From: Kofleriaceae bacterium | GTDB lineage: Bacteria > Myxococcota_A > Polyangia > Haliangiales > Haliangiaceae | NCBI GenBank assembly: GCA_965215005.1 | Contig: CBDCCZ010000001.1 | Coordinates: forward strand, 160,001 to 224,000 | DNA: 64,000 nucleotides | Reading direction: 5' to 3' | Part shown: positions 68 through 18,581 of the stretch, in pieces | How the letters are laid out: every line of letters starts with the position of its first letter | Position numbering within the stretch: position 1 is the stretch's first letter | The notes under the pieces: generated by a model | Told to the model about the DNA's origin: nothing | Database searches by the model: none | The model's input: only the letters and a program-made list of their open reading frames with translations | Made by a program: the position numbers and the translations under genes

Positions 68-523
68 GTGATGAGCCTGCCCAATGCGTATCCATCGCCG
101 GCGTGGTCAACGCCTGTCGGCTTCTGCGTCTGGGGCGTTCCGCTGCCGAAAGGCTCAAAGACGCGGATTGGCGGGCATCTGGTGGAGGTGGCTGACATGC
201 GCTGCCGATCGCGTGCAGCCGGTGCATTGCGGCGCTGGATGGACGCCGTTGGCTGGGAAGCGCGACGGCGATTCCAGACGCCGAGCAGCAAGTCTGTTCA
301 CGTGATGCTCATGTTCGCGCTGCCACGACCCAAGAGCGTGGAGCGCGTGCAGCCCACGGTGAAACCCGATCTGGACAAGCTACAACGTGCCGTCCTCGAT
401 GCGCTCACCGGCATCGCGTACATCGACGATGCGCAGGTAACGCACATCGTCGCAAGCAAGCGGTACGCCGACGGGGTTGAGCCATGCGTGTTCATCGAGG
501 TGAGGGAGGTGCTCGATGCATGA
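68..523 (+). CDS. rusA: RusA-family Holliday junction resolvase
   Basis: KPDLDKLQRAVLDALTGIAYIDDAQV matches the RusA catalytic motif; N-terminal GVPLPKGSK. Confidence 0.85.
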   Translation: MMSLPNAYPSPAWSTPVGFCVWGVPLPKGSKTRIGGHLVEVADMRCRSRAAGALRRWMDAVGWEARRRFQTPSSKSVHVMLMFALPRPKSVERVQPTVKPDLDKLQRAVLDALTGIAYIDDAQVTHIVASKRYADGVEPCVFIEVREVLDA

Positions 524-758
524 GCTCGACCAGAGGAAACGCAAGCGCAATGCACGGCGGGTGAAGACACGCAAGCCGCCTGCACTGCTCGGCGACTGCA
601 AGCCTGGCGATGAGGTGCTGGTTCGGGTGCAGGTGACAGCGTTCATCAACGGCGGCGTGTTTGGTCGAGTGATCGATGCGAGGAGGCAACGGAGCTCGTC
701 GAGCTGCCTCTCGATGCGCCCGTCGTCGCCGTTGAACGGCTGCGGCAAGGCTAGGTGA
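516..758 (+). CDS. Small basic hypothetical protein
   Basis: Overlaps rusA end and ends 3 nt before the next ATG. Confidence 0.4.
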   Translation: MHELDQRKRKRNARRVKTRKPPALLGDCKPGDEVLVRVQVTAFINGGVFGRVIDARRQRSSSSCLSMRPSSPLNGCGKAR

Positions 759-761
759 CAC

Positions 762-1268
762 ATGCTTGCAAGTAACGAAGGCGGGCTTTTGAACGAGCTC
801 GCCGAGCGGGCCGATGCGCTGCTACGCGCGGCGGAAGATGAGCAGTTCAGCGATGCGGCGTTGGACTCGTGGCCGGAGCGCCCGAGAACCCGCGGCGAAT
901 GCATCGGCAAGCCGCGGCCATGTCCGTGGATCGGGTGCCGATATCACCTGCTCTTGCGCGTGACCCACGCAAACACGCTGGTTCTAAATGGCAATGCCGC
1001 CGGCGACGCCGCCGAGCGCAATCTCCGCGGACGGACCGTGGCGCTCTCGCGTGAGCAAGCGTGGTTTCAGCGCGCCCTAGAGACGTGGGAGCAGCTGGAA
1101 GAAACCTGCGCGCTCGATGTCGCGGACCGCGGCCCGCACACGCTGAGCGCCGTTGGCCGGGTTCTGGGGACCTCGCGCGAGCGCATGCGGCAAGTCGAGG
1201 ACGAAGCGAAGAAGCGACTCAAGACGGGGCTCGTCGAGCTCGGCATCAACCAAGTAACGGAGGAATAG
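762..1268 (+). CDS. Sigma-70 region-4-like HTH DNA-binding protein with Cys/His motif
   Basis: C-terminal TLSAVGRVLGTSRERMRQVEDEAKKRLK; upstream RPRTRGEC...PRPCPWIGCRYHL...ETCALDVADRG. Confidence 0.75.
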   Translation: MLASNEGGLLNELAERADALLRAAEDEQFSDAALDSWPERPRTRGECIGKPRPCPWIGCRYHLLLRVTHANTLVLNGNAAGDAAERNLRGRTVALSREQAWFQRALETWEQLEETCALDVADRGPHTLSAVGRVLGTSRERMRQVEDEAKKRLKTGLVELGINQVTEE

Positions 1269-1270
1269 AG

Positions 1271-2155
1271 ATGATGAACACGACAATCGCGATTACTAAC
1301 GACTTCGAAGGAACCGCCCTCACCACCATCCAATACCAGGGGCGCCCTTGCTGGATCGCTAACGAGATTGGGACAGCCCTCGGCTACGCACACGGCGGCA
1401 GGCGTCTTATCCAAAGCGTAACCAAGAACTGGCGCCGGGAATTCGCACCCGGAACTGACTACCTCATTCTCAAAGGGAAGGAGCTTAAAGATTTCAAGAG
1501 CTTACTGGCTGATGACACCGATCTGGTGTCATCAAAACTCGAGCAGTCTCGGCGCGGAATAATGCTCCTCTTCGAGACGGGTCTGTACCTCGTGGTGCAG
1601 AAGACGGAGAAGCCCGCAGGCGTGCGGCTTCGCCGCTTCCTCGCAGAGGACGTGCTGCCCCAGATTCGGCGCACGGGGTCATACACGCCCCCGCCGCCAC
1701 AGCCCACGCCCATGGACGAACGGATGATCCAGGAGCATCTCCGGCAGGGTCGCATCTGGCGCATTACGCAGCTACTCGAGGCCGGCAAGGGGAACCTTGC
1801 GGGCGACTATGTTCGCCGGATCGTCGAGACCTGCCTCGGCAACGAGACCGGCGAGGCGAAGGCGACGAACCCGATCCTCGACGTGAGTCAATTTCTCGCA
1901 GACAAGGGCTTTGGCCGCGAGGGGCAGCGACGCTTCGCCGGAGCATTCGGTAAGACGCTGCGGCGGCTCTACGTTGAAAAGCACGGCGAGGAGCCCAAGA
2001 AGCTGCAGCGGTACGTCAACGACCATGACGTTTTCGTCAACTGCTACACGGAGAAGGATCGGCCATTGTTCGAAGCGGCGTTCCTCGTGCACTTCGGCGG
2101 TCATGTCGAGGCGAATCAGAATGTGCCGCGCTTGCTGACCGAGGAGGTTGGATAA
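1271..2155 (+). CDS. BRO-N domain phage antirepressor-like protein
   Basis: GRPCWIANEIGTALGY...ETGLYLVVQKTEKP...RFLAEDVLPQIRRTGSY; ATG at 1271 after GAGGA. Confidence 0.85.
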   Translation: MMNTTIAITNDFEGTALTTIQYQGRPCWIANEIGTALGYAHGGRRLIQSVTKNWRREFAPGTDYLILKGKELKDFKSLLADDTDLVSSKLEQSRRGIMLLFETGLYLVVQKTEKPAGVRLRRFLAEDVLPQIRRTGSYTPPPPQPTPMDERMIQEHLRQGRIWRITQLLEAGKGNLAGDYVRRIVETCLGNETGEAKATNPILDVSQFLADKGFGREGQRRFAGAFGKTLRRLYVEKHGEEPKKLQRYVNDHDVFVNCYTEKDRPLFEAAFLVHFGGHVEANQNVPRLLTEEVG

Positions 2156-2194
2156 CAGCGGCTTGGGGCGCTTCCGACACGGGCTGTATGACAC

Positions 2195-2999: not shown

Positions 3000-3491
3000 A
3001 TGGTTCGCTCGCGCCAAGAAGTCGCCATCGCCAATGCCGGCGTCGCTCTTGATCAAGCGGATAACCGCTACAGGCGAACGAGCGGTCTATGGCTGTTTCA
3101 GTTCGGCGCCTACGGCACGTTGTACGTGGCGGTGTGGGAGCGATTTCTAGAGGCGGCGCTCGAACAGGCTGCTGAATGGCTTGCGGAGAATGCGCCCGGG
3201 CATCTCATCGATCACTCCGCGATGCGGCGACTGGTGAAAGAGGCGCGTGAGGAGCTCGGGTCGGACGCTTCGGAGGAGGCGGTCTGGGAGCACGCCGAGG
3301 CCGACTTGACGTACACCGAGGCGGGGTGGCTGTTGTCGTATGAGTGGTGGGTTGATGAGGTCGATGCGTTCGATCCACTGTATCGACGGCTGCTCGTGCA
3401 GTCGTTTCGCGAGGCGCCAGAGCAGCTCGAAGACGAGGAGGACCGCGGTCGGGCGCGACGGCTCATTCGGCGTCTGCGGGGGCTAGGATGA
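3000..3491 (+). CDS. Acidic hypothetical protein
   Basis: In-frame ATG at 3000 within ORF 2970-3491; stop overlaps patatin start (ATGA). Confidence 0.65.
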   Translation: MVRSRQEVAIANAGVALDQADNRYRRTSGLWLFQFGAYGTLYVAVWERFLEAALEQAAEWLAENAPGHLIDHSAMRRLVKEAREELGSDASEEAVWEHAEADLTYTEAGWLLSYEWWVDEVDAFDPLYRRLLVQSFREAPEQLEDEEDRGRARRLIRRLRGLG

Positions 3492-4405
3492 GTCTGCTGC
3501 AGGTCCCGCTGGAGCTGCGGCAATCGCGTTGCGCGCTGGTGTTGGCGGGCGCTGTGGGGCAAGGGGCATTTGACGCTGGCGTGCTCTATGAGCTCGTGCA
3601 GCGTGGACTCCGGCCGCAGACGATCGTCGCGACCAGCAGCGGTGCCTTGAATGGGCTCATGCTCGCGGCCGGCATGGCACGGGGAGAGCCTCGAGCGGCG
3701 ATGGGTATGCTCCGCCAGCTCTGGCTCGAGGAGGCATCGTTTGCGCGGCTACTCCGCCGCTCGGTGAGCGTGCGCGGGATTTGGACGCGCCGTGGGCTGC
3801 TGCACGCGGGGCACTTGCTCGACTTGATGCGCCGGTACGCGCCGCCGGCAGAGCTCCCGCGAGGGGACTTCCGCTTCGGCTGTGTGATGGCGCCGCTGGC
3901 CGGGCGTCCGTGCATGGTGAACCGTGCGCCGCATCGGAGCTTCGAGCACGTTGCCATGTTTGGCGCCGCCGACTTCACGCAAGGCAGCATTGAGCGCGTC
4001 TATCGAGCCGTGGCCGCGAGCGCGGCATTTCCGCTTCTGTTTGAGCCGGTGCACGTCGATGGCGTCGGTCCCTGCATCGACGGCGGCACCGTGAACAACA
4101 CGCCGCTCGCCTTGGTCGCCGGCTGCGACGTGGTGATGGTGTGCTCGTCCTATCCTCCGAACGTTGCGCCCGATGCAACCGCAGGCGGCATTCGACTCGT
4201 GGAGACCATCGCCGACATGATCATTCACGAGCGCCTGCTTCGGGACCTCGGCCACCTCGACAAGCTCGCCCATGTCATTGAGATCCGCCCCGAGCAGCGC
4301 CTGCCCGGAGGCGCCTTCGGCTCGCTCCTGGACCGTAGGCTGCGCCAATCGTTCCTCGAGATGGGGCAGCGCGCGGCTCGCAAGATGTGGGAGCGCTGCT
4401 CTTAA
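3488..4405 (+). CDS. Patatin-like phospholipase
   Basis: Gly-rich LAGAVGQGAFDAG, nucleophile ATSSG, ASAAFP and DGG motifs. Confidence 0.85.
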   Translation: MSLLQVPLELRQSRCALVLAGAVGQGAFDAGVLYELVQRGLRPQTIVATSSGALNGLMLAAGMARGEPRAAMGMLRQLWLEEASFARLLRRSVSVRGIWTRRGLLHAGHLLDLMRRYAPPAELPRGDFRFGCVMAPLAGRPCMVNRAPHRSFEHVAMFGAADFTQGSIERVYRAVAASAAFPLLFEPVHVDGVGPCIDGGTVNNTPLALVAGCDVVMVCSSYPPNVAPDATAGGIRLVETIADMIIHERLLRDLGHLDKLAHVIEIRPEQRLPGGAFGSLLDRRLRQSFLEMGQRAARKMWERCS

Positions 4406-4619: not shown

Positions 4620-5723
4620 CTAGGCCGCAAGCGCGAAGCTGCGTGGCGCGTGTGGCAGGCCGTGCTCGCGAATGCAGCCGGCGTGGTCGAGGATGACGGC
4701 GCGCGTGCCGCGCCATGGCCGGAGGGCCCGGCCTACCTGCTGCAGGTAGAGGCCGAGGGACTTGGTTGGTCGGGCGAGGACGATGCATTTTACAGAGGCT
4801 TGATCGAAGCCTTCACAGAGGATGGCGACGCTGCAGACGACTTGGGTCAATCCTTGCGCCAAGCGCACTAGCACGGCATCTCGGTCGATGATTCGCATGG
4901 TGCCGTCGAGGTGCTCAGCGGCGGCGCCGGCGCGGCGGAAGCGGTGTACGAGGCGGCGTGAGTGATCGATGGAGGTGGCGAAGACGAGGGTTCGCAAGTC
5001 GTATGCATGGGTGAGCCATTGCTCGACCACATCGCCGACGAGACGATCGGTATCAACGAGCTTGGAGAGGGCGCGTTCGTCGTAGTCTGTGCCTCGTAGG
5101 GGCACCTTGCCGAGCTCCGGAAGCCACGACATGGTGGGAGCGTGGATTTCCGGCTCGACGAGATAGCCGACTTCCATGAGCTCTCGCGGCGTGGCTGCGG
5201 TGACGAGTGTCTGGTATACGTCGCCGAGGGACTGGCTATCGGCGCGGCACGGGGTGGCGGTAAGGCCGACGCGCACGGCGTCTGCATAGTGCTCGGCCAG
5301 CTCGCGATGGGTTCGCGCGAGCATGCGATGGCACTCGTCCTCGATGACGAGGTCGGCAGGCGGCTTGACGCGGCGATGCACGGTGGCGACGGAGCCGATT
5401 TGAATGGGCGCTTCCGGCCGATGCCGGTCATCGCTGGCCATGAGCACGCCGAGCTGCGGCTCTGGGATACCGAAGTCGAGGAGGCGCTTGTAGGCTTGGT
5501 TGACGAGCTCGCGGCGGTGGGCGAGAAAGAGGCAGCGTTTGCCGGCCGTCCACGCGGCATAAACGAGCTGCGCTGCGATGGTGGTCTTGCCGGAGCCGGT
5601 GGGCGCCACCAGCAGGAGATGGCGTTGATCGCTCGCAAGAAGCTCATCGAGGTGCTGGATGGCGCGCACTTGGTACGCGCGCAGTCGAATGCCCGAAGGA
5701 GCGCGCGCATGAAACATGGTCAC
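4620..5723 (-). CDS. SF2 DEAD/DEAH-box helicase (phage type)
   Basis: LRAYQ, APTGSGKT, DECH, TATP, EGFD and QQVGRALR motifs. Confidence 0.9.
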   Translation of the reverse strand: MTMFHARAPSGIRLRAYQVRAIQHLDELLASDQRHLLLVAPTGSGKTTIAAQLVYAAWTAGKRCLFLAHRRELVNQAYKRLLDFGIPEPQLGVLMASDDRHRPEAPIQIGSVATVHRRVKPPADLVIEDECHRMLARTHRELAEHYADAVRVGLTATPCRADSQSLGDVYQTLVTAATPRELMEVGYLVEPEIHAPTMSWLPELGKVPLRGTDYDERALSKLVDTDRLVGDVVEQWLTHAYDLRTLVFATSIDHSRRLVHRFRRAGAAAEHLDGTMRIIDRDAVLVRLAQGLTQVVCSVAILCEGFDQASVKCIVLARPTKSLGLYLQQVGRALRPWRGTRAVILDHAGCIREHGLPHAPRSFALAA

Positions 5724-6238
5724 CGCGTCCAGAAAACGTGCAGCTCACGATCGATCCTCAGCGTGACGATCTCGCCGCTTAGCTCGAGGTCGCGCGCGTA
5801 CTTCTCATAGTCGATGTATGGGCGCAACTCGGTCGGGATAGCCATGGTCTCGGTCATCAGCTCGTAGGCGAAGTCTTCGAGGGAGTCGAAGATGCCCGCC
5901 GCCTGCTCCTCGAGCATCGTTTGCGCCTCGTCGAGATGAACCAGGCCTCCTACATGGCTCACCAAGGCGGCGATGATTGGGCCGTGCTCGACGAGAAGCT
6001 GGGCGAAGGCTGCAAGCTCTTCGAGCGAGTCGTGCGGCTCAACACGATAGCCGGCAAACCCTTCGTAGTCATCGATGCGCCATTCTTCTGCCTCGGGCAC
6101 CGGAGATGCTTCGAGCATCGAGGCAATCTCTTCTTCGATGTCGCTTGCGTCCTGGTCAGCATCGATCCAAGCGCCGTGGAGAATGCCGGCGTTGTAGGCT
6201 GCCAGGTCAGCAATGTAGAGTCTCGGCTGCGAGGCCAT
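5720..6238 (-). CDS. ardA: Antirestriction protein ArdA
   Basis: LYIADLAAYNAGILHGAWID...EEWRIDDYEGF...YIDYEKYARDL; very acidic. Confidence 0.9.
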   Translation of the reverse strand: MASQPRLYIADLAAYNAGILHGAWIDADQDASDIEEEIASMLEASPVPEAEEWRIDDYEGFAGYRVEPHDSLEELAAFAQLLVEHGPIIAALVSHVGGLVHLDEAQTMLEEQAAGIFDSLEDFAYELMTETMAIPTELRPYIDYEKYARDLELSGEIVTLRIDRELHVFWTR

Positions 6239-6241
6239 GGT

Positions 6242-7069
6242 TTACCTCCGCGAGCTTCGCGACTCCCACGGCTCGACGATCACGCGCTCGGTCGCATTGC
6301 CGAAGGCACGAAGTGCAATGGGAAGGAGGACGATGCCTGCGCCGATGGTGAGGACGGCGGCCATACCGCTGGCGACGGCTCTTGCGGGGTGATCGCCAAA
6401 GAGCGCGTGCAAGAGGCCTTGCAGGATGCTGTCATCGGGCACTTTCCAGGAATCGAGGGTCCGCTGCCAGCCTGCACGCGCCACGGTGCTTGTCGCAATG
6501 GTGTGAAAGGCGGTGCTGGTCGCGTGCTCCGACGCTTTGGCGGACAGAGTGTCAAGAGAGACGCCGGTGTCGAGCGCCGGCACGATGGCTGTTGCGTAGA
6601 AGCGCATCCACCGCTTACGTGCATAGTCGCGCCATTCATCAAGCCGTTCGCCGGTGAGGTCGCGCTCGGCTTGCCGATCTAACTCGGAGGCTTCATCGAC
6701 CCAGCCGCGAATGCCGGTTAGCAGCCGCTCTTGCATCGCTATGACCGAGGCGAGGCGATCGCCGGCGGCTTCCACGTTGCGAAGCAGCGTGCGCTGCGCG
6801 GCGCTGAGCTCGGCCGGCGCGTTTGGCGCCGCGACAGCGCGTTGCAGTGCTTGTTCCAGCGCCGTCACGTGCTGCAGGCGCTGCTGGGCGAGCGAGATGC
6901 CGCTCCACAGCGCGCGGACGTAGCATGTGATGCCGCCAGCGAGGTCTTCTGTTTCGCTGGGGCAGCCGGCGCGCTCGATGAACGCGCGGATGTCGGCAGC
7001 GCTATTTGCGCGCTCGTGGTGAACGCGCGACAGTCGCTCGATGATCGCGCCAATGCGAGAGATGCTCAT
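6242..7069 (-). CDS. Hypothetical helical protein with C-terminal TM segment
   Basis: AVLTIGAGIVLLPIAL near C-terminus; coupled to neighbours. Confidence 0.7.
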   Translation of the reverse strand: MSISRIGAIIERLSRVHHERANSAADIRAFIERAGCPSETEDLAGGITCYVRALWSGISLAQQRLQHVTALEQALQRAVAAPNAPAELSAAQRTLLRNVEAAGDRLASVIAMQERLLTGIRGWVDEASELDRQAERDLTGERLDEWRDYARKRWMRFYATAIVPALDTGVSLDTLSAKASEHATSTAFHTIATSTVARAGWQRTLDSWKVPDDSILQGLLHALFGDHPARAVASGMAAVLTIGAGIVLLPIALRAFGNATERVIVEPWESRSSRR

Positions 7070-7429: not shown

Positions 7430-7711
7430 TTAGGTGCGCTGGCTGGCGGCGAAGGCGTCGATGGAGGTGATTAGGAAGCCCCACTCGACGTCGGCGTCGG
7501 TGTCACTGTCGACGCGGAGGCGGGTGTTTGGTGCAAGGTGCAGTCGCAATACGGTTGCCGGTGGCAAGCGAATCAGTTGGCCATTGCTGAGGCTCAGGCG
7601 ATGCTCACCGAGCTCGAGAGGAACCGCCAAGATGGCCTCGGCCCAGCCCGAGCTGCTGTACACTTCTTGGCCGTGGCCACGGCGCACGAGCGTTGTAAAG
7701 CTCAAGCTCAT
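7430..7711 (-). CDS. Small beta-rich hypothetical protein
   Basis: Start overlaps transglycosylase stop; alternating hydrophobic pattern. Confidence 0.6.
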   Translation of the reverse strand: MSLSFTTLVRRGHGQEVYSSSGWAEAILAVPLELGEHRLSLSNGQLIRLPPATVLRLHLAPNTRLRVDSDTDADVEWGFLITSIDAFAASQRT

Positions 7712-9664: not shown

Positions 9665-9710
9665 GCGGTTTGTAGCGTGTTTGGCTGGCGGCATCGAGAG
9701 TAGTCGCACC

Positions 9711-9911: not shown

Positions 9912-9914
9912 CGC

Positions 9915-10622: not shown

Positions 10623-10681
10623 GTCGTTCGCATTAACGTCGAATCCGAGCCCACCAATATTCTGTCGCCTACGGTGCGGCG

Positions 10682-11563
10682 GTGACCAACCTCCGCGACG
10701 ACTTTCTGCGCACCCTTGCGCAGCTGCGGCGGTCCGACAAGACCATCGAGGCGTATCACTTCGGCGTCACCCGCTTCCTTGCCTTTCTCACGTCGAAAGG
10801 CTGGACGCTCGAGACAGCGCCAAGAACGGCGCTGGCGGACTTCGCGGCTCGTTTATCCGGCAAGGATGGCCTGGCGCCGGCGTCGGTGCGACTCTACGTC
10901 ACCAGCGCCTCGCGATTTCTCCTTTGGGCGCGGCAGCATGGCCATGCGATCACGGAGCAGGTTACGCCGGCGCTGCCGAGTCTGCGTCGCCCGCTGCCGA
11001 TGGTGCTCAAAGAGAAGACCTTGGCAGCCTACATTCGCGTCGCCAAGACCGTGCCGGAGCCGTATCGCACCGCGCTGCTGGTTCTTCCCATGTGCGGCCT
11101 GCGCGTGAGCGAGCTGTGCAAGCTGCAGCTTAGCGACATCGACGTCTCTCCACCGTGGATCCGACTGCGCGTCGACGGCAAAGGCGGCAAGGAGCGTATC
11201 GTTCCCGTCCTTCGCGAAGGGGCGCCGCTCCTGGGCCGGTATCTCACGCAAGTGCGCCCGGGCCTGCCCGGCGACACCTACTTGTTCCCCGCACGCGACA
11301 ATCGCCCCATCACCGCCCGTATGCTGCAAAAGCATATGCGGCAGGTGCGCGCCCAGCTCGGCCTCACCACGCTCACACCGCACAAGCTGCGCCACACCTA
11401 TCTGACGGTGCTCAACGAGCATGGGATCACCGGCTTTGACCTCGCGGCCATCGCTGGACATTCCGGTCTTTCGACCACGCAAATCTACGTTCACCCGAGC
11501 ATCGAGCGCCTGAGCCAACGCGTCGGCGATATCGAGACCCGTTGGACCGAGGAATCGTCATGA
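10682..11563 (+). CDS. XerC/D-like tyrosine recombinase
   Basis: Complete catalytic set: GLRVSE, GKGGKER, HKLRH, AGH, TQIY. Confidence 0.92.
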   Translation: MTNLRDDFLRTLAQLRRSDKTIEAYHFGVTRFLAFLTSKGWTLETAPRTALADFAARLSGKDGLAPASVRLYVTSASRFLLWARQHGHAITEQVTPALPSLRRPLPMVLKEKTLAAYIRVAKTVPEPYRTALLVLPMCGLRVSELCKLQLSDIDVSPPWIRLRVDGKGGKERIVPVLREGAPLLGRYLTQVRPGLPGDTYLFPARDNRPITARMLQKHMRQVRAQLGLTTLTPHKLRHTYLTVLNEHGITGFDLAAIAGHSGLSTTQIYVHPSIERLSQRVGDIETRWTEESS

Positions 11564-13167
11564 GCCAAGTTGCCGACAAAGCCGCCGAGATTCGCGAGGT
11601 CATGGAGCTTGGCGAAGCGCCCGCTATGGAAGAAGTCGAAGCCGCGCCGCCACCTCGGCCCAGGTTGGCTTCTGTGGAAGAGTCGGATGAAACGCCAATT
11701 GACGATGCGGCCAAGCCACATCCTCAGCCTGGAGCGCGAACGCTGAAGCGTCCCACGCCGCGGCCAACGCAGCGAAGCTCAAAGCTTGGGCGATTCTTGC
11801 CCGATGGGGAGCGAGTCAAGGTTTGGAAGCGAGACCTCGGCCAGCGCCGCTACGTGCGCCATTACACCATGCCCGACTTGGCGCATGCGCAGGACATCGA
11901 GACGTTTCTGCAGACGTATGTCGTGCCGGCGTTTGGCGAAGGCGAGTACGACATTGAGGTTATCGGCAGCGACGGCTCGATCACGCGCACGCTCACGCTC
12001 TCGGTTCTCGACCCGCACAAGGCAGCCCCCGTGGCGGCCGGTGGCGTTGGCGCATCGCCCCTCATCGAGCGCTTGCTCGACCGCATCGAGGCATTGGAAC
12101 GCGAGAGCCGCAAGCCTGCCAAGACGATGCTCGAGCAGATTCAAGAGGTCTCGCAGATTCAGCAACTGATGGGCGGCGATGACGACAAGCCCCGCGCTGA
12201 GCTCGGCACCATCGCCACGCTGATGATGGCGATGCAGCAGCAACCGGCGCCGATCACTGGGGAGCTTGCAGAGCTCAAAGCGCAGCTGCGCGAGCTGAGT
12301 CGGCCGGCGCCTGCCAGTTTGCCCGAGCTGCCGAGTGCGCCACCGCCGGCGGTGGATATCGCCGCGCTGCTTCGCGAGCTAGCCGCGATCACCAAGCCAG
12401 CCGTCGATCCGCACGAGCTCGTCGAGCGCATGAAGCAAGACCGCACGCAGATGATGCAGGTTGCGATGCAGCTCGTGCCCATCGTCGAGCGGATGCTCGG
12501 CAATCGCAGCGAAGAAGTGGAACGGATGCGCTCGCAGCAGATGCAGCTCCTGCAAGAGCAGCTGCGCGAAGCCAAGGCCACTCCTGCGCGAGGTCTGCGC
12601 GAGACGCTCGAGGAGATGGCCGTGCTACGGCAGTTCATGGGACCCGCGCGAAGCGCCGGGGCCTCTCAAGAAAGCTTCTGGAGCTTTCTGAGCAAAGTCG
12701 TCGACCAGTTCCCAGCGACCATGGAGTCGCTCAGCGGCGTGGTCGAGAAGATTCGCCAGGAGCAGCAGCCCACGCCCGCCCTCAAAGCGCGGCCCGCTCC
12801 CACCCCGAAGCCAAGGCCAACAGCTCCATCGTCAAAGGCGACGCAGCCACCACCAAAGCCGACCATCAATCAACTTGCCAGCCATCTCGCCGCCATCGAG
12901 ACCGCGCCTGATGACGCAAGCCTCGTCGAGGCGACGCTCAAGGCATTCCACGTCCTCGGCCAGTCCGAGCCATGGCGTGCGCACCTCGTCAAAGCCATGA
13001 CCGTCGCCAAGCAAGGCAACCGCGACGAGGCGCTGCGATGGATCCGCGGCTTCCTCGACGGCCTCGTCGACGCAAAGCGGCTTTCCGCAGAGGCTCGCGA
13101 CCGCGCCGCCAAGGCATTCGAGACCCACATCGACAAGGTCATCGACGCACTCAAGGACAAACGATGA
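11560..13167 (+). CDS. Large Pro-rich/coiled-coil hypothetical protein
   Basis: ATGA overlaps on both sides; helical Met/Gln/Glu-rich core. Confidence 0.75.
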   Translation: MSQVADKAAEIREVMELGEAPAMEEVEAAPPPRPRLASVEESDETPIDDAAKPHPQPGARTLKRPTPRPTQRSSKLGRFLPDGERVKVWKRDLGQRRYVRHYTMPDLAHAQDIETFLQTYVVPAFGEGEYDIEVIGSDGSITRTLTLSVLDPHKAAPVAAGGVGASPLIERLLDRIEALERESRKPAKTMLEQIQEVSQIQQLMGGDDDKPRAELGTIATLMMAMQQQPAPITGELAELKAQLRELSRPAPASLPELPSAPPPAVDIAALLRELAAITKPAVDPHELVERMKQDRTQMMQVAMQLVPIVERMLGNRSEEVERMRSQQMQLLQEQLREAKATPARGLRETLEEMAVLRQFMGPARSAGASQESFWSFLSKVVDQFPATMESLSGVVEKIRQEQQPTPALKARPAPTPKPRPTAPSSKATQPPPKPTINQLASHLAAIETAPDDASLVEATLKAFHVLGQSEPWRAHLVKAMTVAKQGNRDEALRWIRGFLDGLVDAKRLSAEARDRAAKAFETHIDKVIDALKDKR

Positions 13168-13805
13168 ACGTCACCAACCTCATCATGGGAATCGGCTCCA
13201 TGGTCGCCGGCGGCAAGGCACTGAAGAACGCCTTTGAGAGCTCCTCCTCGACCGCGATCGAAGACGTCGGCGAAGTGACACACCACAACGCCTCAAGCCT
13301 AGAAGCGCGTATCCGCATCCTCATCGACCTGATTCGGAAAGGCCGCGAGCATCCCGCCATTCGCGCTAAGACCGCGCAGATTCTGAGCCGAAAGTGCGCT
13401 GATCCAAAGACCGGCCACAAGACCTGGTGCATCGGCGAGCGCGACTGGGAAGGGGAGGTCCGCGCCATCTTCGCTCTCGTTCGCGATCAAGTCCGCTACA
13501 CCCGCGACACCTACGGCGCCGAGCTCTACCAGTCACCAAACCGCATCCTACAGTTCGGCATCGGTGATTGCGACGATGGCGTCGTGGTCCTCGCCTCCAT
13601 GCTGCAATCGGTCGGCTACCCCGTGAAGCTTCGCGTCACGCGCAGCAAGGGCGCATCCGACTGGGACCACATCTACCTGCTCGTCGCCGTGCCTCCGCGG
13701 AAGTCCGCTCGTTGGGTCGCGCTCGACCCGAGCATGAACAAGCCGCCCGGCTGGCAGGTCCCGTCGCATGCCATTTCTGCCAAACGCGACTTTCTCGTCA
13801 CGTAA
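13164..13805 (+). CDS. Transglutaminase-like cysteine protease
   Basis: Cys-His-Asp triad in GDCDD, DHIY, VALDP; preceded by VRYTRD...ELYQSP. Confidence 0.85.
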   Translation: MNVTNLIMGIGSMVAGGKALKNAFESSSSTAIEDVGEVTHHNASSLEARIRILIDLIRKGREHPAIRAKTAQILSRKCADPKTGHKTWCIGERDWEGEVRAIFALVRDQVRYTRDTYGAELYQSPNRILQFGIGDCDDGVVVLASMLQSVGYPVKLRVTRSKGASDWDHIYLLVAVPPRKSARWVALDPSMNKPPGWQVPSHAISAKRDFLVT

Positions 13806-13938
13806 CGAGCCAGAACGAGCTCTTCAAGTTCCTGCAGGGTCGGCGCTACGGCCTCGATGGTGTCAAAGGGTGGTTTTCGCGATCAGGTGCACCACGTGAG
13901 GCGGAGGAGTCTCCGCGAGCTGCTCCGATCGCGCGGCG

Positions 13939-14619
13939 TCATGTGTTCAGAGACCGCTTGAGCACTACGTGCATCGCCGCTTCCGATGTGGCGTGTTCCT
14001 GCACCTGGTAGCCGAGCGCGAGTAGGTCCAGTCCATTCAGGAGATGTTCGCCCGAGCCAAGCACGACTGGCGAGATCGCCAGATGCATCTCGTCGACGAG
14101 CCGAGCGCGGAGGTACTGCCGAATCGTCTCAACGCCGCCCCCGAGGCGCACGTCCTTCGGTCCAGCAGCTTCCTTCGCACGCCTTAGCGCCTGCTCGATA
14201 CCCTCCGTGACGAAGTGGAACGTCGTGCCGCCTTCCATTTCGATGGATTCCCGATGGTGGTGGGTGAGGACGAAGATGGGCGTGTGGTAGGGCGGATTGT
14301 TCCCCCACCACCCCTTCCACGCGTCGTCGGGCCACGGGCCGCGGATGGGGCCGAACATGTTGCGGCCGAGGATCCACGCGCCGATGTTCTCCATGCCGCG
14401 CCGGGCGAAGTCGTCGTCGACTCCGGTGGTGCCTTCCGTCTGCATTCCCCGGGCCGCCGGGGCATCCTTGAGCTGCAACAAGTTGAACGTGCGGGTGGGA
14501 ACGAACCACTTGTGGAGATTTTCGCCCCCGACACCGAGCGGATTGTCTCGGTCCTGGCCGAGGCCTGCGCCATATCCATCTACGGAAATCGTGAAGCACT
14601 GCACCCGCAGCTTGCCCAT
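13939..14619 (-). CDS. Dihydrofolate reductase / RibD C-terminal family protein
   Basis: ISVDGYGAG, ILGRNMF, IFVLTHH, VRLGGG, LVDEMHLAISPVVLGSG. Confidence 0.9.
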   Translation of the reverse strand: MGKLRVQCFTISVDGYGAGLGQDRDNPLGVGGENLHKWFVPTRTFNLLQLKDAPAARGMQTEGTTGVDDDFARRGMENIGAWILGRNMFGPIRGPWPDDAWKGWWGNNPPYHTPIFVLTHHHRESIEMEGGTTFHFVTEGIEQALRRAKEAAGPKDVRLGGGVETIRQYLRARLVDEMHLAISPVVLGSGEHLLNGLDLLALGYQVQEHATSEAAMHVVLKRSLNT

Positions 14620-14895
14620 GACGTTCTTCTAACACGGGCGGGCACGGCACATGAAGTATCCCCACCCGCAGATCGTCGAGTGCCTCCTGCACGTACCCAC
14701 CGACTTGGGGAAGCAGCAGCCGCTGCATACCAGCAGATGCGCCGGCAGCTCGGCGATCACGGTGTGACAGCTCTGACCGATGACATCCAGCGATGCGTGC
14801 AGCTTGCTCGCCGCTTCGGGCACCGCGACTAACGACGCATTAACCAGCGTTCCGTGCCGCTCCCTGCTCGAGCTGATAGCTCTAAACCATTGACC

Positions 14896-15051
14896 ATGAA
14901 GACCCGCCGATGCAGTGCTTTCAAGAAGGTCTACTCGCCCGCCTTTGGCAAATACGTCAAACGCTGCCGCAGCTTCACACGGCGCGTGAAACCGACCGGG
15001 CGGCGTGTGTCCCGATGGACGCGGGCACGCCGCTTCGCTAGGCGAGGCTGA
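14896..15051 (+). CDS. Small Arg-rich protein
   Basis: MKTRRCSAFKKVYSPAFGKYVKRCRSFTRR...; alternative in-frame TTG at 14890; next ATG 9 nt after stop. Confidence 0.55.
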   Translation: MKTRRCSAFKKVYSPAFGKYVKRCRSFTRRVKPTGRRVSRWTRARRFARRG

Positions 15052-15060
15052 GGACAAGCT

Positions 15061-15633
15061 ATGACCCGTGTACTCACTCTCGAAGGATTGCGCCGCATGA
15101 GACCTCTTCCCGTGGATTCCTATGATGCACTTGCCGGTCTCGATGGCGTTGTCGATCCGGAGGCCCTGCGCGCCGCTCTACCGAGCGCCCTCGGCGGATT
15201 TGGCAGTGGCGCCATCATGCACTTGGCTCATCAGGTGGAGCAGGTGCAGCGCTTGGTCGACACGCCAGTCAAACGCATGGTCGCTGCCGGCGGCCTTGGC
15301 ATCCTCGGGGGCCTTGGAATTTGGCGATTGGACCGCGACGCGGCCATGGGCTGGGTTGGCGGCATGAGCGCGCAACTGGCCAGTGAGCTAATTGCGCTGG
15401 TGATGCGCAAGCCAGGTGGCACCGCGGGCCTTGGCGCCTACCCGGATGAAGACGAGCTCGACGCCGAAGCGGCATTGATGGGCTCCTCGTATCTGGGCGC
15501 GCTTCCAGAAGAGCAAGAGCTTCTTGGCCTTGGCGATCCAGCCGTGGAGCGCCAGACGCCAACAGGCTTCGCCGATGCAGAGATCGAAGTCGACGAAGAG
15601 CTCGATACTTCCCTGGCTGGCTTTCTCACCTAA
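15061..15633 (+). CDS. Membrane protein with Gly-rich TM segments and acidic tail
   Basis: GAGGA RBS; AAGGLGILGGLGIW and AAMGWVGGMSA. Confidence 0.7.
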   Translation: MTRVLTLEGLRRMRPLPVDSYDALAGLDGVVDPEALRAALPSALGGFGSGAIMHLAHQVEQVQRLVDTPVKRMVAAGGLGILGGLGIWRLDRDAAMGWVGGMSAQLASELIALVMRKPGGTAGLGAYPDEDELDAEAALMGSSYLGALPEEQELLGLGDPAVERQTPTGFADAEIEVDEELDTSLAGFLT

Positions 15634-15650
15634 CCCGCCTTCTCGTTTTT

Positions 15651-15716
15651 GGCGGCCAGCGAGGCACCCTCAACCACCGCGAGGCTTCCTCGCAACCACT
15701 CACCTCGCTGGCCGCC
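15651..15716 (+). promoter_or_regulatory. Nested hairpin upstream of the candidate capsid gene
   Basis: Perfect 14-bp IR GGCGGCCAGCGAGG (15651-64) / CCTCGCTGGCCGCC (15703-16) enclosing GCGAGG-CTT-CCTCGC. Confidence 0.6.
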
Positions 15717-15761
15717 GCCATTTCCCCTCCGCAAGACGCCGCAGAGGCGCACCCGAGCCCC

Positions 15762-16442
15762 ATGAGCACGCAAACCCTCGTTCCCGTCAAAGGCGAGCCC
15801 GGCGTCTTCTTCAATAAGCTAACTGGCAAGAAGATCCACATTGTTGATTGGCGCGAAGATGACAAGTACGACACCGTCTTCTTGCCGCCTGGCCCGATTC
15901 AGCCGGGCACGTCGCTGTACTTCTTCCGCGACTTGCAAGGCAAGAACCTCATCGACACCAACTTCTCCGCCCCGCGCAAGCTGCCAGCGGGCGAGGAGAT
16001 GATTCTCAACCGCATCGGCGTGCAGATTCCGCTCGCCATCGGCAACGTCCTGATGACGCCGGGCGATATCAAGAAGGTCGCTGAGAACGGCTATCTCGCC
16101 TTCCGCATCAACCGCAAAGACGTGGCCGAAGGGCCGCTGTTGCGCTTTCCGAGCGGGTATGGGCTCTCTGGCTCCACCAACGTCGATAACGACGGCACCT
16201 TGTCGATTGGCGTTCCGTCGACCGCCGCCGCCGCCAAGCTCGCGCGCGACCAGTACGTCAACTCCGACCACGACATGGACGGCGTCGTGACCTACTACGA
16301 TCGCGCTTGGATGCGTGGCCTGCAGGGTATGGGTGATCCCAATGACGACGTCGGCATCGCGCCATTCCCGCCGGTGCTCGAGCGCGGCGTCGCCATTCGA
16401 CTCGTCCTCCACGGTCTCATCAAAGCAGCTGCGACCAAATGA
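15762..16442 (+). CDS. Beta-rich protein, candidate single jelly-roll major capsid protein
   Basis: YDTV...LYFF...GKNLIDTNF...KLP...RIGVQ pattern, terminal strand IRLVLHG; ORF secure, function inferred. Confidence 0.55.
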   Translation: MSTQTLVPVKGEPGVFFNKLTGKKIHIVDWREDDKYDTVFLPPGPIQPGTSLYFFRDLQGKNLIDTNFSAPRKLPAGEEMILNRIGVQIPLAIGNVLMTPGDIKKVAENGYLAFRINRKDVAEGPLLRFPSGYGLSGSTNVDNDGTLSIGVPSTAAAAKLARDQYVNSDHDMDGVVTYYDRAWMRGLQGMGDPNDDVGIAPFPPVLERGVAIRLVLHGLIKAAATK

Positions 16443-16909
16443 TGCGTGCAATCACAGGCGGGCCGCTCATGGCGCATTCGCGCGATGTGCTGGCCTTGCC
16501 ACCGGAGCTCATGCGCATCGATCTGGTGAGCTTCGCCTTCGACATCGGCCCTCGTGGCCAAGTCACAGGCGACACCCAAGCAAGCCTGCATGCCGACTTT
16601 GCCGCGGAGCTCTATGCGATCTCGGCCTTCGCAGAAGATCCGACAGCAGACCTGCCGCTGGCGCCATTTGTAACCATCAACCTGCGCGAAGATGGCCGCA
16701 ACTTCGATCACTTCACCACGCCCATCGAGCTTGCGTACTTTCTTCGACCAGGCGCTCCGGCAGTCACCTTCCCCCGCGGCGCCTACGTCTTCCGTCCAGG
16801 CGCCCGCGTGCGCCTCGGCGTGCGGGTCCATCCTGAGTACATCGCGCGCACGAGTGTCCCCAAACGCTGGGGTGTGCTCTTGGCTCTCAACCTTTGGCGA
16901 AGTGAGTAG
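16439..16909 (+). CDS. Beta-rich protein, candidate minor/vertex jelly-roll protein
   Basis: LHADF...VTINLRE...TPIEL...TFPRGAYVFRPGARVRLGVRV; coupled to previous gene. Confidence 0.5.
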   Translation: MMRAITGGPLMAHSRDVLALPPELMRIDLVSFAFDIGPRGQVTGDTQASLHADFAAELYAISAFAEDPTADLPLAPFVTINLREDGRNFDHFTTPIELAYFLRPGAPAVTFPRGAYVFRPGARVRLGVRVHPEYIARTSVPKRWGVLLALNLWRSE

Positions 16910-16911
16910 TC

Positions 16912-18279
16912 ATGCAAGTCATCGAGCTCGACTCGGAAGTAAGCCCGCCGGCGTTTGGTCTATCTGGCGATGAGCGCCTGGTATTCGAAGGTGGTCCAGT
17001 CCCCGTTCTCGAAGACGCCATGCTCGGTGACGCCAGCGATGCCGCCGCCGAAGAAGGCGACGCAGCGCAATCTACAAACATCGATCGACGCCGACGCCTC
17101 GAGCAGATCGTCAACCGTCGACGCCGCGCCATCGCCTCCGCCCGTGCCGAGCGCAAGGTGCTAGAAGCCCGCATCGCTGGCCTCGACCGACAGATCGTCT
17201 CCGAGCTGCGTCCCGCGCTCGAGCGCGCCAAGCGCCAAGGCAACCGCGACAAGATGCGCCGTCTCGACGACCGCATCCACCGCCTCGACCTCAACCGCGG
17301 CATCGTCGCCGCACGCGCCATTCGCTACGCCAAGACCGAGGGCCTCGGGCAAGTCCTCATCCGCAATGCCAGAACCCAACAGCAACTCCTAACGCTCATC
17401 CAACAAGCGCAGCGCACAGGCAAGACCAGTGCCGCGTCTACACTGCAGCGCGCCTTCAATCAGATCGCCGGCAAGACGCAACGCTACAAACGCCTCCGTC
17501 GCCACCAAGTGCACGATTGGAGAGAGAAGACCGCCGGATCACGCATCGCACTTGCGCGTATGCTGCGCGAGCAAGCTCAAGAGCGCCTCGCCCGCCTGGA
17601 AGATGCTGCCGGCCGCGGCAGCATCGGTCAACGCATCACTCGTCAAGCCGCCGAGCATCGCGTGCTCGTTACCAAGCTCAAAGCTGCCGAAGAGCGCGAA
17701 CGAAGTCGCCTACAGCACCTCGCTGTTCGAGATGCCCAAGGCATGGCATCCATGCCGTTCTCCGAAGCCACCGCCTTGGCCGCTACCATGGAGCTCGAAG
17801 GCTTCGAAGGCATCTGGTCAAGCATCAAGCGCTACGCCAAGAAGACCGGCGGCGCCATCACCGCCCCCGGCCGCGCCGTCGGCGGCGCCGTCAAAGACGC
17901 CGTCCGCCAAGTCGGCTCCGCCGCCAAACGCCTCGCCAAAGGCGCCGCCTGCGCCGCTGCATCCAACCCCGCCGTCCTCGCCGCCGCCGGAAGCGCCGCC
18001 GGCACCGTTCTCGGCGGCCCCGCCGGAACCATCGCCGGCGGCCTCGCCGCAAAAGCCGCCGGCGGCCTCCTCTCCGCCGCCTGTCCCCAACGATCAAACG
18101 CACCCGGTCCTCAACCGACATCCGGCACTGCCGCCATGCCCGTCTCTATGCAAACCGCGGCTTCAGGCATGCTCCAACCGCAGCCGCGCTCGATGACGCC
18201 CATCCTCATCGGCGGCGGCCTCGCCACCGCCGGCATCCTCGCCGCCGTCGCCCTCAGCGCAAACCGACAAGACTCCTAG
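16912..18279 (+). CDS. Basic coiled-coil protein with Gly/Ala-rich region and C-terminal TM
   Basis: Arg-rich helices, GIWSSIKRYAKK amphipathic segment, ILIGGGLATAGILAAVAL. Confidence 0.75.
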   Translation: MQVIELDSEVSPPAFGLSGDERLVFEGGPVPVLEDAMLGDASDAAAEEGDAAQSTNIDRRRRLEQIVNRRRRAIASARAERKVLEARIAGLDRQIVSELRPALERAKRQGNRDKMRRLDDRIHRLDLNRGIVAARAIRYAKTEGLGQVLIRNARTQQQLLTLIQQAQRTGKTSAASTLQRAFNQIAGKTQRYKRLRRHQVHDWREKTAGSRIALARMLREQAQERLARLEDAAGRGSIGQRITRQAAEHRVLVTKLKAAEERERSRLQHLAVRDAQGMASMPFSEATALAATMELEGFEGIWSSIKRYAKKTGGAITAPGRAVGGAVKDAVRQVGSAAKRLAKGAACAAASNPAVLAAAGSAAGTVLGGPAGTIAGGLAAKAAGGLLSAACPQRSNAPGPQPTSGTAAMPVSMQTAASGMLQPQPRSMTPILIGGGLATAGILAAVALSANRQDS

Positions 18280-18284
18280 CCCCA

Positions 18285-18581
18285 ATGACTCCAACCACCG
18301 ACCCCGACCTCATCCCCTACGTGCGCAAGCTCGAGCTCCTCCTGAGCCGCCCCGTCTGGAGCTGCCCCTCACTCCGCCGTCGGTTCCACGAACTCGACAC
18401 CGAGCTCCAAGGCTCCCTCACCAGAGCCCTCGCAACCCTCCTCCGCGACCAAGACATCGTCCGCTACGGCGCCCGCCTCATACCCATCAGCGGAGCCAAC
18501 GCCTCAACTCCGCCCGCAGCATCACCACAGGCCGGTGACTCATCAGCCGCTCCAAAAGCGAGCTGGCAGAGCTGGGGCTGA
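18285..18581 (+). CDS. Small hypothetical protein
   Basis: ATG 5 nt after previous stop; same C-rich codon usage. Confidence 0.55.
   Translation: MTPTTDPDLIPYVRKLELLLSRPVWSCPSLRRRFHELDTELQGSLTRALATLLRDQDIVRYGARLIPISGANASTPPAASPQAGDSSAAPKASWQSWG

Follow-up and report, generated by a model that had tools for sequence, protein, structure and literature searches.

We favour, on balance, the reading that a temperate virus of an undescribed lineage of bacterial dsDNA viruses has integrated here, and that the region described is its right half or a recent remnant of it. That lineage is probably tailless. The window, the whole stretch of 64,000 nucleotides that was analysed, had been proposed in the first-pass annotation to carry a little-described type of virus with a jelly-roll capsid. 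This proposal is supported by structure models of the two candidate capsid proteins, by the left flank, by the genomic context of homologues and by homology to gp34 of Salisaeta phage SSIP-1.

The element starts at a tRNA-Asp gene 16.3 kb to the left of the window, where an integrase gene and then a gene for an excisionase-like HTH protein follow the tRNA; a helicase and an exonuclease complete the left flank. The left edge therefore lies outside the window, and the range originally given for the element, starting at position 68, was corrected. The right end is an att-like repeat that is 95.9% identical over 97 bp to C1:143649–143745 (blastn). The tRNA-Asp site and this repeat bound a 61.6-kb island. 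The element occurs twice in the assembly: a second copy on contig C48 is 94% identical over 17.6 kb, with homology to the contig C1 copy stopping near window position 18421. The right-hand limits are as follows.

45165–45261 (+): att-like 97-bp repeat (3' end of tRNA-Asp plus the sequence downstream of it) that closes the 61.6-kb island on the right
18291–18581 (+): small ORF, where the sequence common to both copies ends

The rightward block at 10682–18279 would be the morphogenesis module of the virus. Its gene order, including an arginine-rich peptide, is as first described. Its genes are under purifying selection (dN/dS 0.009–0.11 for module genes between the C1 and C48 copies). G001–G004 below are four related IMG/VR genomes.

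10682–11563 (+): XerC/D-like tyrosine recombinase (Pfam Phage_integrase, E = 3e-30, plus SAM_1; dN/dS 0.017)
11542–13167 (+): 541-aa low-complexity (P/Q-rich) protein, scaffold-like; homologues at the same position in G001–G004
13161–13805 (+): transglutaminase-like (papain-fold) protein (Pfam Transglut_core, E = 2e-9; tblastn to SSIP-1 gp34, E = 7e-8)
13939–14619 (−): RibD_C-domain reductase (Pfam RibD_C), inserted cargo, absent from the C48 copy
14896–15051 (+): 51-aa arginine-rich peptide (39% R+K in this form), candidate DNA-condensing protein; dN/dS 0.044
15061–15633 (+): 190-aa Gly-rich acidic protein (14% G; dN/dS 0.03)
15762–16442 (+): 226-aa predicted single-jelly-roll protein, candidate major capsid protein
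16439–16909 (+): 156-aa predicted single-jelly-roll protein, candidate second capsid or penton protein
16912–18279 (+): 455-aa basic protein (p455), rich in Gly/Ala over one region and anchored by a C-terminal TM segment (residues 428–450, in agreement with the earlier call)

For the transglutaminase-like gene, 13161 (giving 214 aa) is a more probable start than 12972 and is the one seen in the second copy. The RibD_C region is missing from C48, where the joint is 13800>14888. The 541-aa protein combines a small conserved beta domain with a helical C-terminal domain; it had no match in Pfam or the PDB, and its counterparts in G001–G004 are 645–743 aa long. The 190-aa protein had been called a Gly-rich membrane protein, of which the Gly-rich part stands; under a strict hydropathy rule it has no strong TM segment. 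It carries the motif hydrophobic-x-G-[LF]-[GEDA] five times, and in 4 of 14 loci a weak homologue is the immediate 5' neighbour of the jelly-roll gene. Sites of the form hydrophobic-x-G-[LF]-G resemble adenovirus protease sites. In the C48 copy the 455-aa gene is truncated by IS66: its product ends at 326 aa, adjoining IS66 genes.

AF2 models of the 226-aa and 156-aa proteins, which had been noted as beta-rich from sequence, were confident eight-stranded beta sandwiches (pLDDT 85 and 86), each predicted to be a single and not a double jelly roll. Among the best structural matches are capsid proteins of the single-jelly-roll type from viruses with an internal membrane; the scores for the fold are moderate, and non-viral jelly rolls score equally well. 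No known capsid protein was linked by sequence to the jelly-roll family, and a search of the PDB with the family profile found nothing. Against SSIP-1 gp46 the profile scored 6.9 bits (E = 0.0066 in a 33-protein search), with an hhalign probability of 0.2–1.2%. The family comprises 193 representative clusters at 50% identity, and its gene is the most conserved of the lineage (37–58% identity to most of 118 clusters). In the Atlas, clusters adjoining the family were 88–100% viral; the nearest with a Pfam family were the PM2 P2 and PRD1 P3 capsid families, at scores of 0.76–0.77 that give a lead only.

Homologues occur in genomes of viral appearance. G001–G004, 80–102 kb long and rated as 100% complete, bear direct repeats at their termini; other homologues lie on MAG contigs of similar size, and the jelly-roll gene was present in 0 of 60 related genomes. 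Five families, namely the tyrosine recombinase, the 541-aa low-complexity protein, the transglutaminase-like protein and the 226-aa and 156-aa jelly-roll proteins, occur in unchanged order in the island and in all four IMG/VR genomes. This block, which the recombinase gene opens in each of the five genomes compared, is the only gene set common to them all. By phmmer, 11 of 14 loci have a homologue of the 156-aa protein after the jelly-roll gene, BLASTP clustering adds a twelfth, and G004 has a tandem pair of 226-aa gene paralogues. Elsewhere, G001–G004 encode a D5 primase-helicase, PolA, RecD2, methylases, a dCMP deaminase and CHAP and M23 lysis enzymes. The related 80–102 kb metagenomic genomes are spread across MAG bins of many phyla, and we found no published description of them. 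Several genes located 3' of the module in G001–G003 (a large PG-binding protein, repeat proteins) are absent from the 61.6-kb island, which may therefore be defective or helper-dependent.

Across the module and the genes to its left, Pfam gave family matches for 10 of 28 ORFs scanned and PHROGs for 7 of 28. Pfam recovered all the phage-type genes that had been named (RusA, Bro, ArdA, helicase, transglycosylase and recombinase). The genes to the left of the module are listed next.

68–523 (+): RusA-like Holliday-junction resolvase, recombination module (Pfam RusA, E = 2e-15; phrog_140, E = 3e-25)
762–1268 (+): small protein whose C-terminus resembles sigma-70 region 4 (Pfam Sigma70_r4, E = 1e-4, below cut-off; dN/dS 0.04 against the C48 copy)
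1268–2155 (+): Bro-N/anti-repressor (Ant)-like protein (Pfam Bro-N, E = 2e-7; phrog_2011 and phrog_130, E about 1e-15); the ORF opens at 1061, with the start likely near 1268
3488–4405 (+): patatin-like phospholipase (Pfam Patatin, E = 8.5e-27)
4620–5723 (−): superfamily-2 DNA helicase (Pfam ResIII/DEAD/Helicase_C; phrog_16, E = 1e-80)
5720–6238 (−): ArdA anti-restriction protein (Pfam ArdA, E = 1e-37)
6242–7069 (−): 275-aa protein (p275) of no family with a C-terminal TM anchor (hydropathy segment 229–257; dN/dS 0.095)
7708–8370 (−): SLT-domain lytic transglycosylase with an N-terminal TM (residues 1–26; Pfam SLT, E = 8e-8; dN/dS 0.06)
8367–8651 (−): polytopic membrane protein of about 94 aa with TM segments and a CxxC motif (BLASTP to ORFs of loci L003, L004 and L005, E = 5e-9 to 2e-11)
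8642–8923 (−): 93-aa protein with a homologue in G004 (BLASTP E = 3e-7; clustering)
9107–9664 (+): regulator candidate with HTH, coiled coil and Cys-rich C-terminus (weak HTH_17/MerR_1 match; dN/dS 0.21)
9915–10622 (+): 235-aa protein of no family (dN/dS 0.12)

Several small TM proteins had been reported here. By the strict hydropathy rule, strong TM segments are confined to p275, the SLT protein, the 94-aa protein and p455. Homologues of the 94-aa protein sit downstream of the module in L003–L005. The ORF at 7430–7711 (−) showed no sign of constraint (dN/dS 1.0, from 10 substitutions alone). Judged from its sequence features, 9107–9664 (+) is likely a regulator gene; the opposite-strand ORF 8957–9994 (−) was rejected as probably spurious (dN/dS 0.91 versus 0.21).

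The absence of terminase, portal, HK97 capsid and tail genes that had been reported for the window was borne out there (Pfam, PHROGs) and extended to the left flank. Among the 28 ORFs, PHROGs gave head or packaging rows for the P-loop of the helicase alone: two faint matches to terminase, at E = 0.004 and 0.0095. In the left flank up to the integration site, the 112-aa HTH protein gave a phrog_57 'terminase small subunit' row (E = 6e-5), and its excisionase rows were better. Searches for terminase, portal, HK97 capsid, tail tube, tail sheath and T4SS returned none among the module genes, none among the 141 proteins of G002 and G004 with Pfam, and none with PHROGs among 104 of those 141 or among the 117 proteins of G001 and G003. 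Terminase_6N was found in 0 of 4 of these genomes. Portal and HK97-fold major capsid proteins of the Caudoviricetes had no Pfam or PHROG row in the island or G001–G004, a result at profile level, and tail tube, sheath and baseplate had no PHROG rows in the island or its relatives. Weak tape-measure rows occurred in G003, on a 270-aa protein (E = 2.8e-5) and on an M23-peptidase-like protein.

These searches bear on an alternative that we regard as unlikely: a very divergent tailed phage, or another virion architecture, whose capsid, portal and terminase escape the profiles. The jelly rolls would then have an accessory place in the virion, for instance as decoration or cement proteins, as vertex spikes or as receptor-binding tips. 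A length of 80–102 kb is usual for tailed phages, many G001–G004 proteins belong to no family, and two fibre-like proteins beside the G001 module match the 'head decoration / tail fiber' family phrog_2647 (E = 1e-80 to 1e-100). Of all phage genes, the one for the large terminase subunit is usually detected most readily, yet searches of the island and the four complete genomes gave only faint rows on helicase P-loop or N-terminal segments (in the G003 helicase, residues 78–205 only). Gene calls cover 84–89% of each of these genomes, with no gap above 1.5 kb, so a large hallmark gene was not simply missed. Furthermore, the strong conservation of the jelly-roll gene is more in keeping with a major capsid protein than with a receptor-binding tip.

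Counting against the tailless reading that we prefer are the jelly-roll family's missing sequence link to known capsid proteins, the genome size, the genes that the island lacks, the weak head- and tail-type rows and the failure to find a packaging ATPase. Consistent with the first-pass annotation, no packaging ATPase was visible in the window, and FtsK/HerA-type (A32-like) ATPases had no Pfam or PHROG match in the island or the left flank. A Walker-A scan of the island yielded two helicases as the only plausible proteins. No orphan P-loop protein was conserved across the five genomes, and the SSIP-1 ATPase gp40 had no homologue in the ORF set searched. Packaging may be ATPase-independent.

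SSIP-1 is a tailless, membrane-containing phage. When the transglutaminase-like protein was compared with 50,697 phage records, it matched only SSIP-1 gp34, which is annotated as a structural protein. In the reverse direction (phmmer), gp34 picked out the homologues of the island, of C48 and of the related loci in 15 rows, some of them one gene under two names, with E = 6e-9 to 3e-13. By sequence, then, the transglutaminase-like protein is homologous to this virion protein. Other SSIP-1 genes code for an integrase, a sigma-factor-like protein and an Ant-like protein. In a phmmer search of all ORFs with 33 SSIP-1 proteins, gp34 was the only one annotated as structural to match the module; the single row for gp43 (E = 2e-6) fell on a type I methylase in the island cargo. 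The two differ in that no SSIP-1 protein is significantly similar to the jelly-roll family (gp46 was best), that the virion ATPase gp40 has no counterpart here and that SSIP-1 is 43.8 kb, compared with 35–62 kb for the island and 80–102 kb for the free genomes. According to reviews (PMC6356626, PMC4958249, PMC6260650), SSIP-1 has a genome of circular dsDNA and major capsid proteins of two types.

Vertical single-jelly-roll viruses (HHIV-2, HCIV-1, SH1, P23-77) likewise have an adjacent pair of single-jelly-roll genes with small membrane proteins close by. The models predict such a neighbouring pair here, and members of this group are among the structural matches. In contrast to these viruses, the candidate capsid genes here have no adjacent packaging ATPase, no A32-like ATPase was found in the morphogenesis module, no sequence similarity was found between their capsid proteins and the jelly-roll family, and their genomes are far smaller than the relatives of the island. 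The four belong to kingdom Helvetiavirae, now assigned to realm Singelaviria (PMC12714852). PRD1- and PM2-type phages (Varidnaviria) resemble the element in their small TM proteins, transglycosylase and tailless design, but have a double jelly roll where two single ones are predicted here; the Varidnaviria combination of double-jelly-roll capsid and A32-like ATPase (Tectiviridae, Corticoviridae and others) was not found. PRD1 P7 is a virion-associated transglycosylase. Sulfolobus polyhedral virus 1 (SPV1, Portogloboviridae) has an archaeal host, a genome of about 20 kb, a condensed nucleoprotein core and no known packaging ATPase. No sequence similarity between SPV1 and island proteins was found, and its structural match scores were no clearer than those of unrelated jelly rolls.

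It is improbable that these are non-viral elements (integrative elements or large plasmids) whose five-gene block is a recombinase-borne cassette with some function other than a capsid, such as defence or a structure of the membrane or surface: the block's own tyrosine recombinase and its status as sole shared gene set, the missing packaging ATPase, ArdA and the SLT transglycosylase (both also typical of conjugative elements), a ParB-like protein in G004 and contig terminal repeats that show only a circular or terminally redundant molecule would fit this, but Pfam detected neither a relaxase nor a type IV coupling protein nor an ATPase of the VirB4 type in the island, G002 or G004, the jelly-roll protein had no match in 72,556 plasmid records, the relatives carry lytic-phage-type sets (PolA, primase-helicase, nucleotide-modifying enzymes, endolysins), the neighbouring Atlas clusters are 88–100% viral and the gp34 homologue is annotated as structural in a real virus.

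A tyrosine integrase inserted the element at tRNA-Asp. If the element is a provirus, as we favour, the 226-aa and 156-aa proteins would build an icosahedral shell, as the capsid protein pairs of sphaerolipovirus-type viruses, of SSIP-1 and of SPV1 do, with the 541-aa protein as putative scaffold. The transglutaminase-fold protein may be a cysteine protease associated with the virion, whose task would perhaps be to process virion proteins. DNA could be condensed by the Arg-rich peptide together with basic tails on neighbouring proteins, the TM proteins and SLT enzyme could serve an internal membrane and cell-wall passage, and the Xer-like recombinase could resolve circular genome multimers. All these module roles, and the internal membrane itself, are putative. 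Only tentatively do we propose a new high-rank lineage (family level or well above): tailless, with two single-jelly-roll proteins, genomes to about 100 kb, no terminase or FtsK/HerA-type motor, DNA condensed by Arg/Lys-rich proteins, multimers resolved by the module recombinase and virion proteins matured by the transglutaminase-fold protease at hydrophobic-x-G-[LF]-G sites, the present copy being the first temperate member known for which a bacterial host is identified.

Few tailless membrane-containing phages are cultured, and what is known of their diversity comes mostly from small genomes. To our knowledge, 80–102 kb is well outside the size range of cultured tailless prokaryotic dsDNA viruses; if our reading is correct, a widespread, uncultured lineage with genomes two to several times larger would be added, bearing on how jelly-roll capsids scale and how DNA enters them. 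The integrated copy would link this lineage to a real bacterial chromosome, and the host link would therefore make the metagenomic genomes experimentally approachable. The orphan phage SSIP-1 gains its first relatives, for at least one virion protein.

Our first-pass annotation had read window 68-18581 as a candidate tailless, membrane-containing provirus that carries phage-type genes and lacks the hallmark genes of tailed phages. Pfam families were matched by 10 of the 28 ORFs scanned between window positions 68 and 23681 (window C1:160001-224000, G+C ~63%): RusA, Bro-N, patatin, an SF2 helicase, ArdA, SLT, a tyrosine recombinase, Transglut_core, RibD_C and, below threshold, sigma-70 region 4. 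PHROGs matched 7 of the 28 ORFs, in agreement with Pfam, and in the head and packaging categories it gave nothing beyond a pair of faint matches to terminase (E 0.004 and 0.0095), both on the P-loop region of the helicase. The gene list and the absence of tailed-phage hallmarks are therefore real. The same profile scans found no terminase, portal, capsid or tail protein in the left flank (C1:140001-160000; 20 ORFs with Pfam, 19 with PHROGs), where such genes might still have lain. One left-flank helix-turn-helix protein gave a 'terminase small subunit' row (phrog_57, E 6e-5), and its excisionase rows were better (E 1e-9).

A virion-like module (window 10682-18279) is present in a second copy on contig C48 of the same assembly. 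dN/dS was calculated between the C1 and C48 copies, for which synonymous divergence is ~0.2.

Genes of the virion-like module, with dN/dS between the two copies
tyrosine recombinase, dN/dS 0.017
11542-13167, 541-aa protein, dN/dS 0.089
transglutaminase-like protein, dN/dS 0.11
51-aa Arg-rich peptide, dN/dS 0.044
15061-15633, 190-aa protein, dN/dS 0.031
15762-16442, plus strand, 226-aa protein, dN/dS 0.037
16439-16909, plus strand, 156-aa protein, dN/dS 0.009
16912-18279, 455-aa protein, dN/dS 0.096 over its N-terminal 326 aa

The low dN/dS across these genes indicates strong purifying selection. No Pfam or PHROGs family, even at E 0.1, was found for the 541-, 190-, 226-, 156- and 455-aa proteins. 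To the left of the module the same comparison gave other results. The ORF at 8957-9994 on the minus strand (dN/dS 0.91, odd Arg-rich content) looks spurious, and 9107-9664 on the plus strand, which lies inside it, is more likely the real gene (dN/dS 0.21, weak HTH match). A gene at 7430-7711 on the minus strand is unsupported (dN/dS 1.0, on 10 substitutions).

The proposal that 15762-16442 and 16439-16909 encode jelly-roll proteins was borne out by the predicted structures, in which both proteins are modelled with this fold and fold scores are moderate. The 226-aa model is a beta sandwich (pLDDT 85.2, pTM 0.82, from a 51-sequence alignment). Foldseek returned no PDB match for it at E≤1e-3, its weak rows being mostly circovirus, SPV1 and SH1 capsid proteins; of the 15 matches from a viral library (E≤1e-3), most were to CRESS-virus capsid proteins or to proteins without a name. 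When 48,161 chains were compared by VIA-align, the SPV1 capsid protein scored 7.4, followed by HHIV-2 (7.1), the STIV turret (6.8), HCIV-1 (6.6) and P23-77 VP17 (6.2) and VP16 (5.7). For the 156-aa jelly-roll model (pLDDT 86.2, pTM 0.75, 15-sequence alignment), Foldseek ranks 1, 2, 4, 6 and 8 were SPV1, HHIV-2 or HCIV-1 (best E 2.5e-3, probability 1.00). Comparison by hhalign gave no support for shared ancestry of the two jelly-roll families (probability 0.4%), and a complex prediction for the pair scored 0.00, which counts neither for nor against an interaction. Profile and sequence searches of PDB sequences yielded nothing useful for the jelly-roll family or the 541-aa family.

At 90% identity, homologues of the 226-aa protein form 118 clusters, none with a name, with lengths of 205-244 aa; at E≤1e-3 a 50% library contains 193 representatives, 35 of them at E≤1e-30. 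Neither the 50,697 GenBank phage records nor the 72,556 plasmid records gave a match to it, and the two copies of its gene in this assembly stand against 0 of 60 related genomes. Four relatives (G001-G004) come from IMG/VR; all are 80-102 kb, carry 78-127-nt direct terminal repeats and have a completeness rating of 100%. Ten MAG contigs binned in very different phyla also carry the gene, and the scatter of phyla together with the size of five of them (65-96 kb) suggests mis-binned viral contigs. Clustering of the proteins of the island and G001-G004 gave five families found in 5/5 genomes in a conserved order: tyrosine recombinase, 541-743-aa protein, transglutaminase-like protein, 226-aa protein and 156-aa protein. 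The homologues thus occur in mobile, virus-like contexts, as the provirus reading had anticipated. By phmmer, 11 of 14 loci have a 156-aa homologue immediately after the jelly-roll gene, with a twelfth found by clustering, and in G004 two tandem 226-aa paralogues precede it, making three consecutive jelly-roll genes (L006 9848-11412). Two small proteins encoded at 8367-8923 on the minus strand also have homologues near the module in relatives.

The main rival to the provirus reading is a divergent tailed phage with its hallmark genes hidden, which we consider unlikely. Gene calls cover 84-89% of each of G001-G004, with gaps never above 1.5 kb. In G002 and G004, 141 proteins of at least 110 aa outside the module were scanned with Pfam and 104 of these with PHROGs; in G001 and G003, 117 proteins of at least 150 aa were scanned with PHROGs, and module genes were scanned separately. 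Among the proteins so scanned there was no terminase, portal, HK97 capsid, tail tube or sheath, or T4SS protein, and Terminase_6N was found in 0/4 genomes. Some rows do point towards tailed phages. Beside the G001 module (L007 3093-9215), 371- and 1535-aa proteins match phrog_2647 'head decoration', virion structural and tail-fibre families (E 1e-80 to 1e-100); these are probably fibre or spike proteins. An 836-aa G003 protein gave terminase rows (E 3e-9 to 1e-6) confined to residues 78-205, and its helicase row was better. Weak tape-measure rows fell on a 270-aa G003 protein (E 2.8e-5) and on an M23-peptidase-like one; a 170-aa protein of G001 gave a weak 'internal virion protein' row. Phage-type replication genes are present in the relatives (D5-type primase-helicase, PolA, RecD2 helicase with intein, PolX, ligase), along with methylases, dCMP deaminase, thymidylate synthase, and CHAP, M23 and PG-binding lysis proteins. 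The RecD2-type helicase of G002 (77357-80641, L029) has a LAGLIDADG domain in its intein. A Walker-A scan of the island left just two helicases as plausible ATPases, and no orphan P-loop protein recurs in all five genomes.

Less likely still is a non-viral element with a recombinase-borne cassette; a recombinase does head the conserved block. An integrative conjugative element is rejected, since Pfam scans of the island and of G002 and G004 showed no transfer gene.

[quoted passage not shown] In turn, a search with gp34 matched the homologues of the island, C48 and the related loci in 15 rows (E 6e-9 to 3e-13), some of which name one gene twice. Reviews characterise SSIP-1 as tailless, with an internal membrane and T=49; its genome is circular (44 kb) and its capsid proteins are of two types (PMC6356626, PMC4958249, PMC6260650). 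A further source places its group (Helvetiavirae) in the realm Singelaviria (PMC12714852). SSIP-1 shares the transglutaminase-like gp34 with the module; the jelly-roll family has no significant sequence similarity to SSIP-1 proteins. No other SSIP-1 protein annotated as structural significantly matches the module, a link from the jelly-roll family to gp45/gp46 was not significant, and gp46 has just one homologue in a set of 5.8 billion proteins. Small sigma-70 region 4-like proteins are encoded at window 762-1268 and in G002 (L020 18018-18422), and SSIP-1 gp2 is annotated as a sigma factor; such proteins may control late genes.

We infer that the module is the virion module of a temperate virus. 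The 226- and 156-aa jelly-roll proteins would build the shell, the latter as a second capsid protein or, because it resembles pentameric jelly rolls, a penton protein. The 541-aa P/Q-rich protein, with its small conserved beta domain and acidic tail, could be the scaffold, and the transglutaminase-fold protein a cysteine protease of the virion. DNA may be condensed by the Arg-rich peptide together with basic tails on adjacent proteins, the TM proteins and SLT enzyme would serve membrane and wall functions, and the Xer-like recombinase might resolve circular multimers. A hydrophobic-x-G-[LF]-[GEDA] motif occurs at 0.29-0.43 per 100 aa in module proteins vs 0.07-0.11 elsewhere in all five genomes, 3-6 times denser than in the rest of each genome (island: window 15061-18279). 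It resembles adenovirus protease cleavage sites and may mark sites for the transglutaminase-like protease, although it is only a lead because it was defined after being noticed. A tailless virus with two single-jelly-roll capsid proteins is a kind already known. If the reading is true, the lineage would be new, as would the 80-102 kb genomes, the missing packaging ATPase, and the module-borne recombinase and transglutaminase-like protein. Full-text literature searches, judged on titles and abstract openings, found no description of the gene block, so one may exist elsewhere.

C48 (40.4 kb) aligns with C1:159188-173800 and C1:174888-177888 at 94% identity. Within the virion-like block sits a RibD_C gene in the opposite orientation (13939-14619, minus strand); the C48 copy and a variant among public-run contigs (joint 13800>14888) lack it, and it is therefore a recent insertion. 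On C48 the 455-aa gene is broken after codon 326 by adjoining IS66-family genes, a TnpB-like gene and two transposases (C48:17300-22200, L047 and L048). Homology between C1 and C48 stops near window 18421, with different genes beyond and no att repeat there. The stretch is present in two contig sets from one sample, and no RNA run is listed among the runs containing it. Summed contig depth in runs X1 and X2, which mixes variants and is not copy number, was 8.5-34 over window 8000-18817 vs 2.7-6.2 over 18818-26000, a pattern consistent with several variants or copies being present.

The left flank (Pfam matches in 5/20 ORFs, PHROGs in 6/19) runs from Lon protease through tRNA-Val and tRNA-Asp to a tyrosine integrase (minus strand), an HTH_17 excisionase-like protein, unknown genes, a 696-aa helicase, an 808-aa unknown protein and a PD-(D/E)XK exonuclease extending into the window. 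A 97-bp stretch from the tRNA-Asp 3' end (C1:143649-143745) is repeated at C1:205165-205261 (window 45165-45261; 95.9% identity), which delimits a 61.6-kb tRNA-Asp island with the studied region in its middle. At the internal boundary near window 18.4 k, a search for a third att copy was negative. The provirus may end there or at 45261, and the mobile unit may be ~35 kb or the whole 61.6 kb.

The right part of the island begins with a 1481-aa protein that matches no family and lies where G+C is lower (56-58%); a PDB sequence search with it gave nothing useful. It is upstream of a 1973-aa RHS/FG-GAP protein whose C-terminal tip is a Tox-REase-7 nuclease domain; after this comes a 199-aa HEAT-repeat protein, its possible immunity partner (23708-30225). 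An IS3 transposase is also present. At 32953-41124 an HTH_17 protein precedes a type I restriction-modification system (HsdM/HsdS/HsdR) and a YgjP-like metallopeptidase. At 41137-44576 lie genes for a nucleotidyltransferase-like protein, a cyclic-dinucleotide receptor protein of the Cap15 type and a sensor protein (DACNG/DACNH), which together resemble a CBASS-type defence system.
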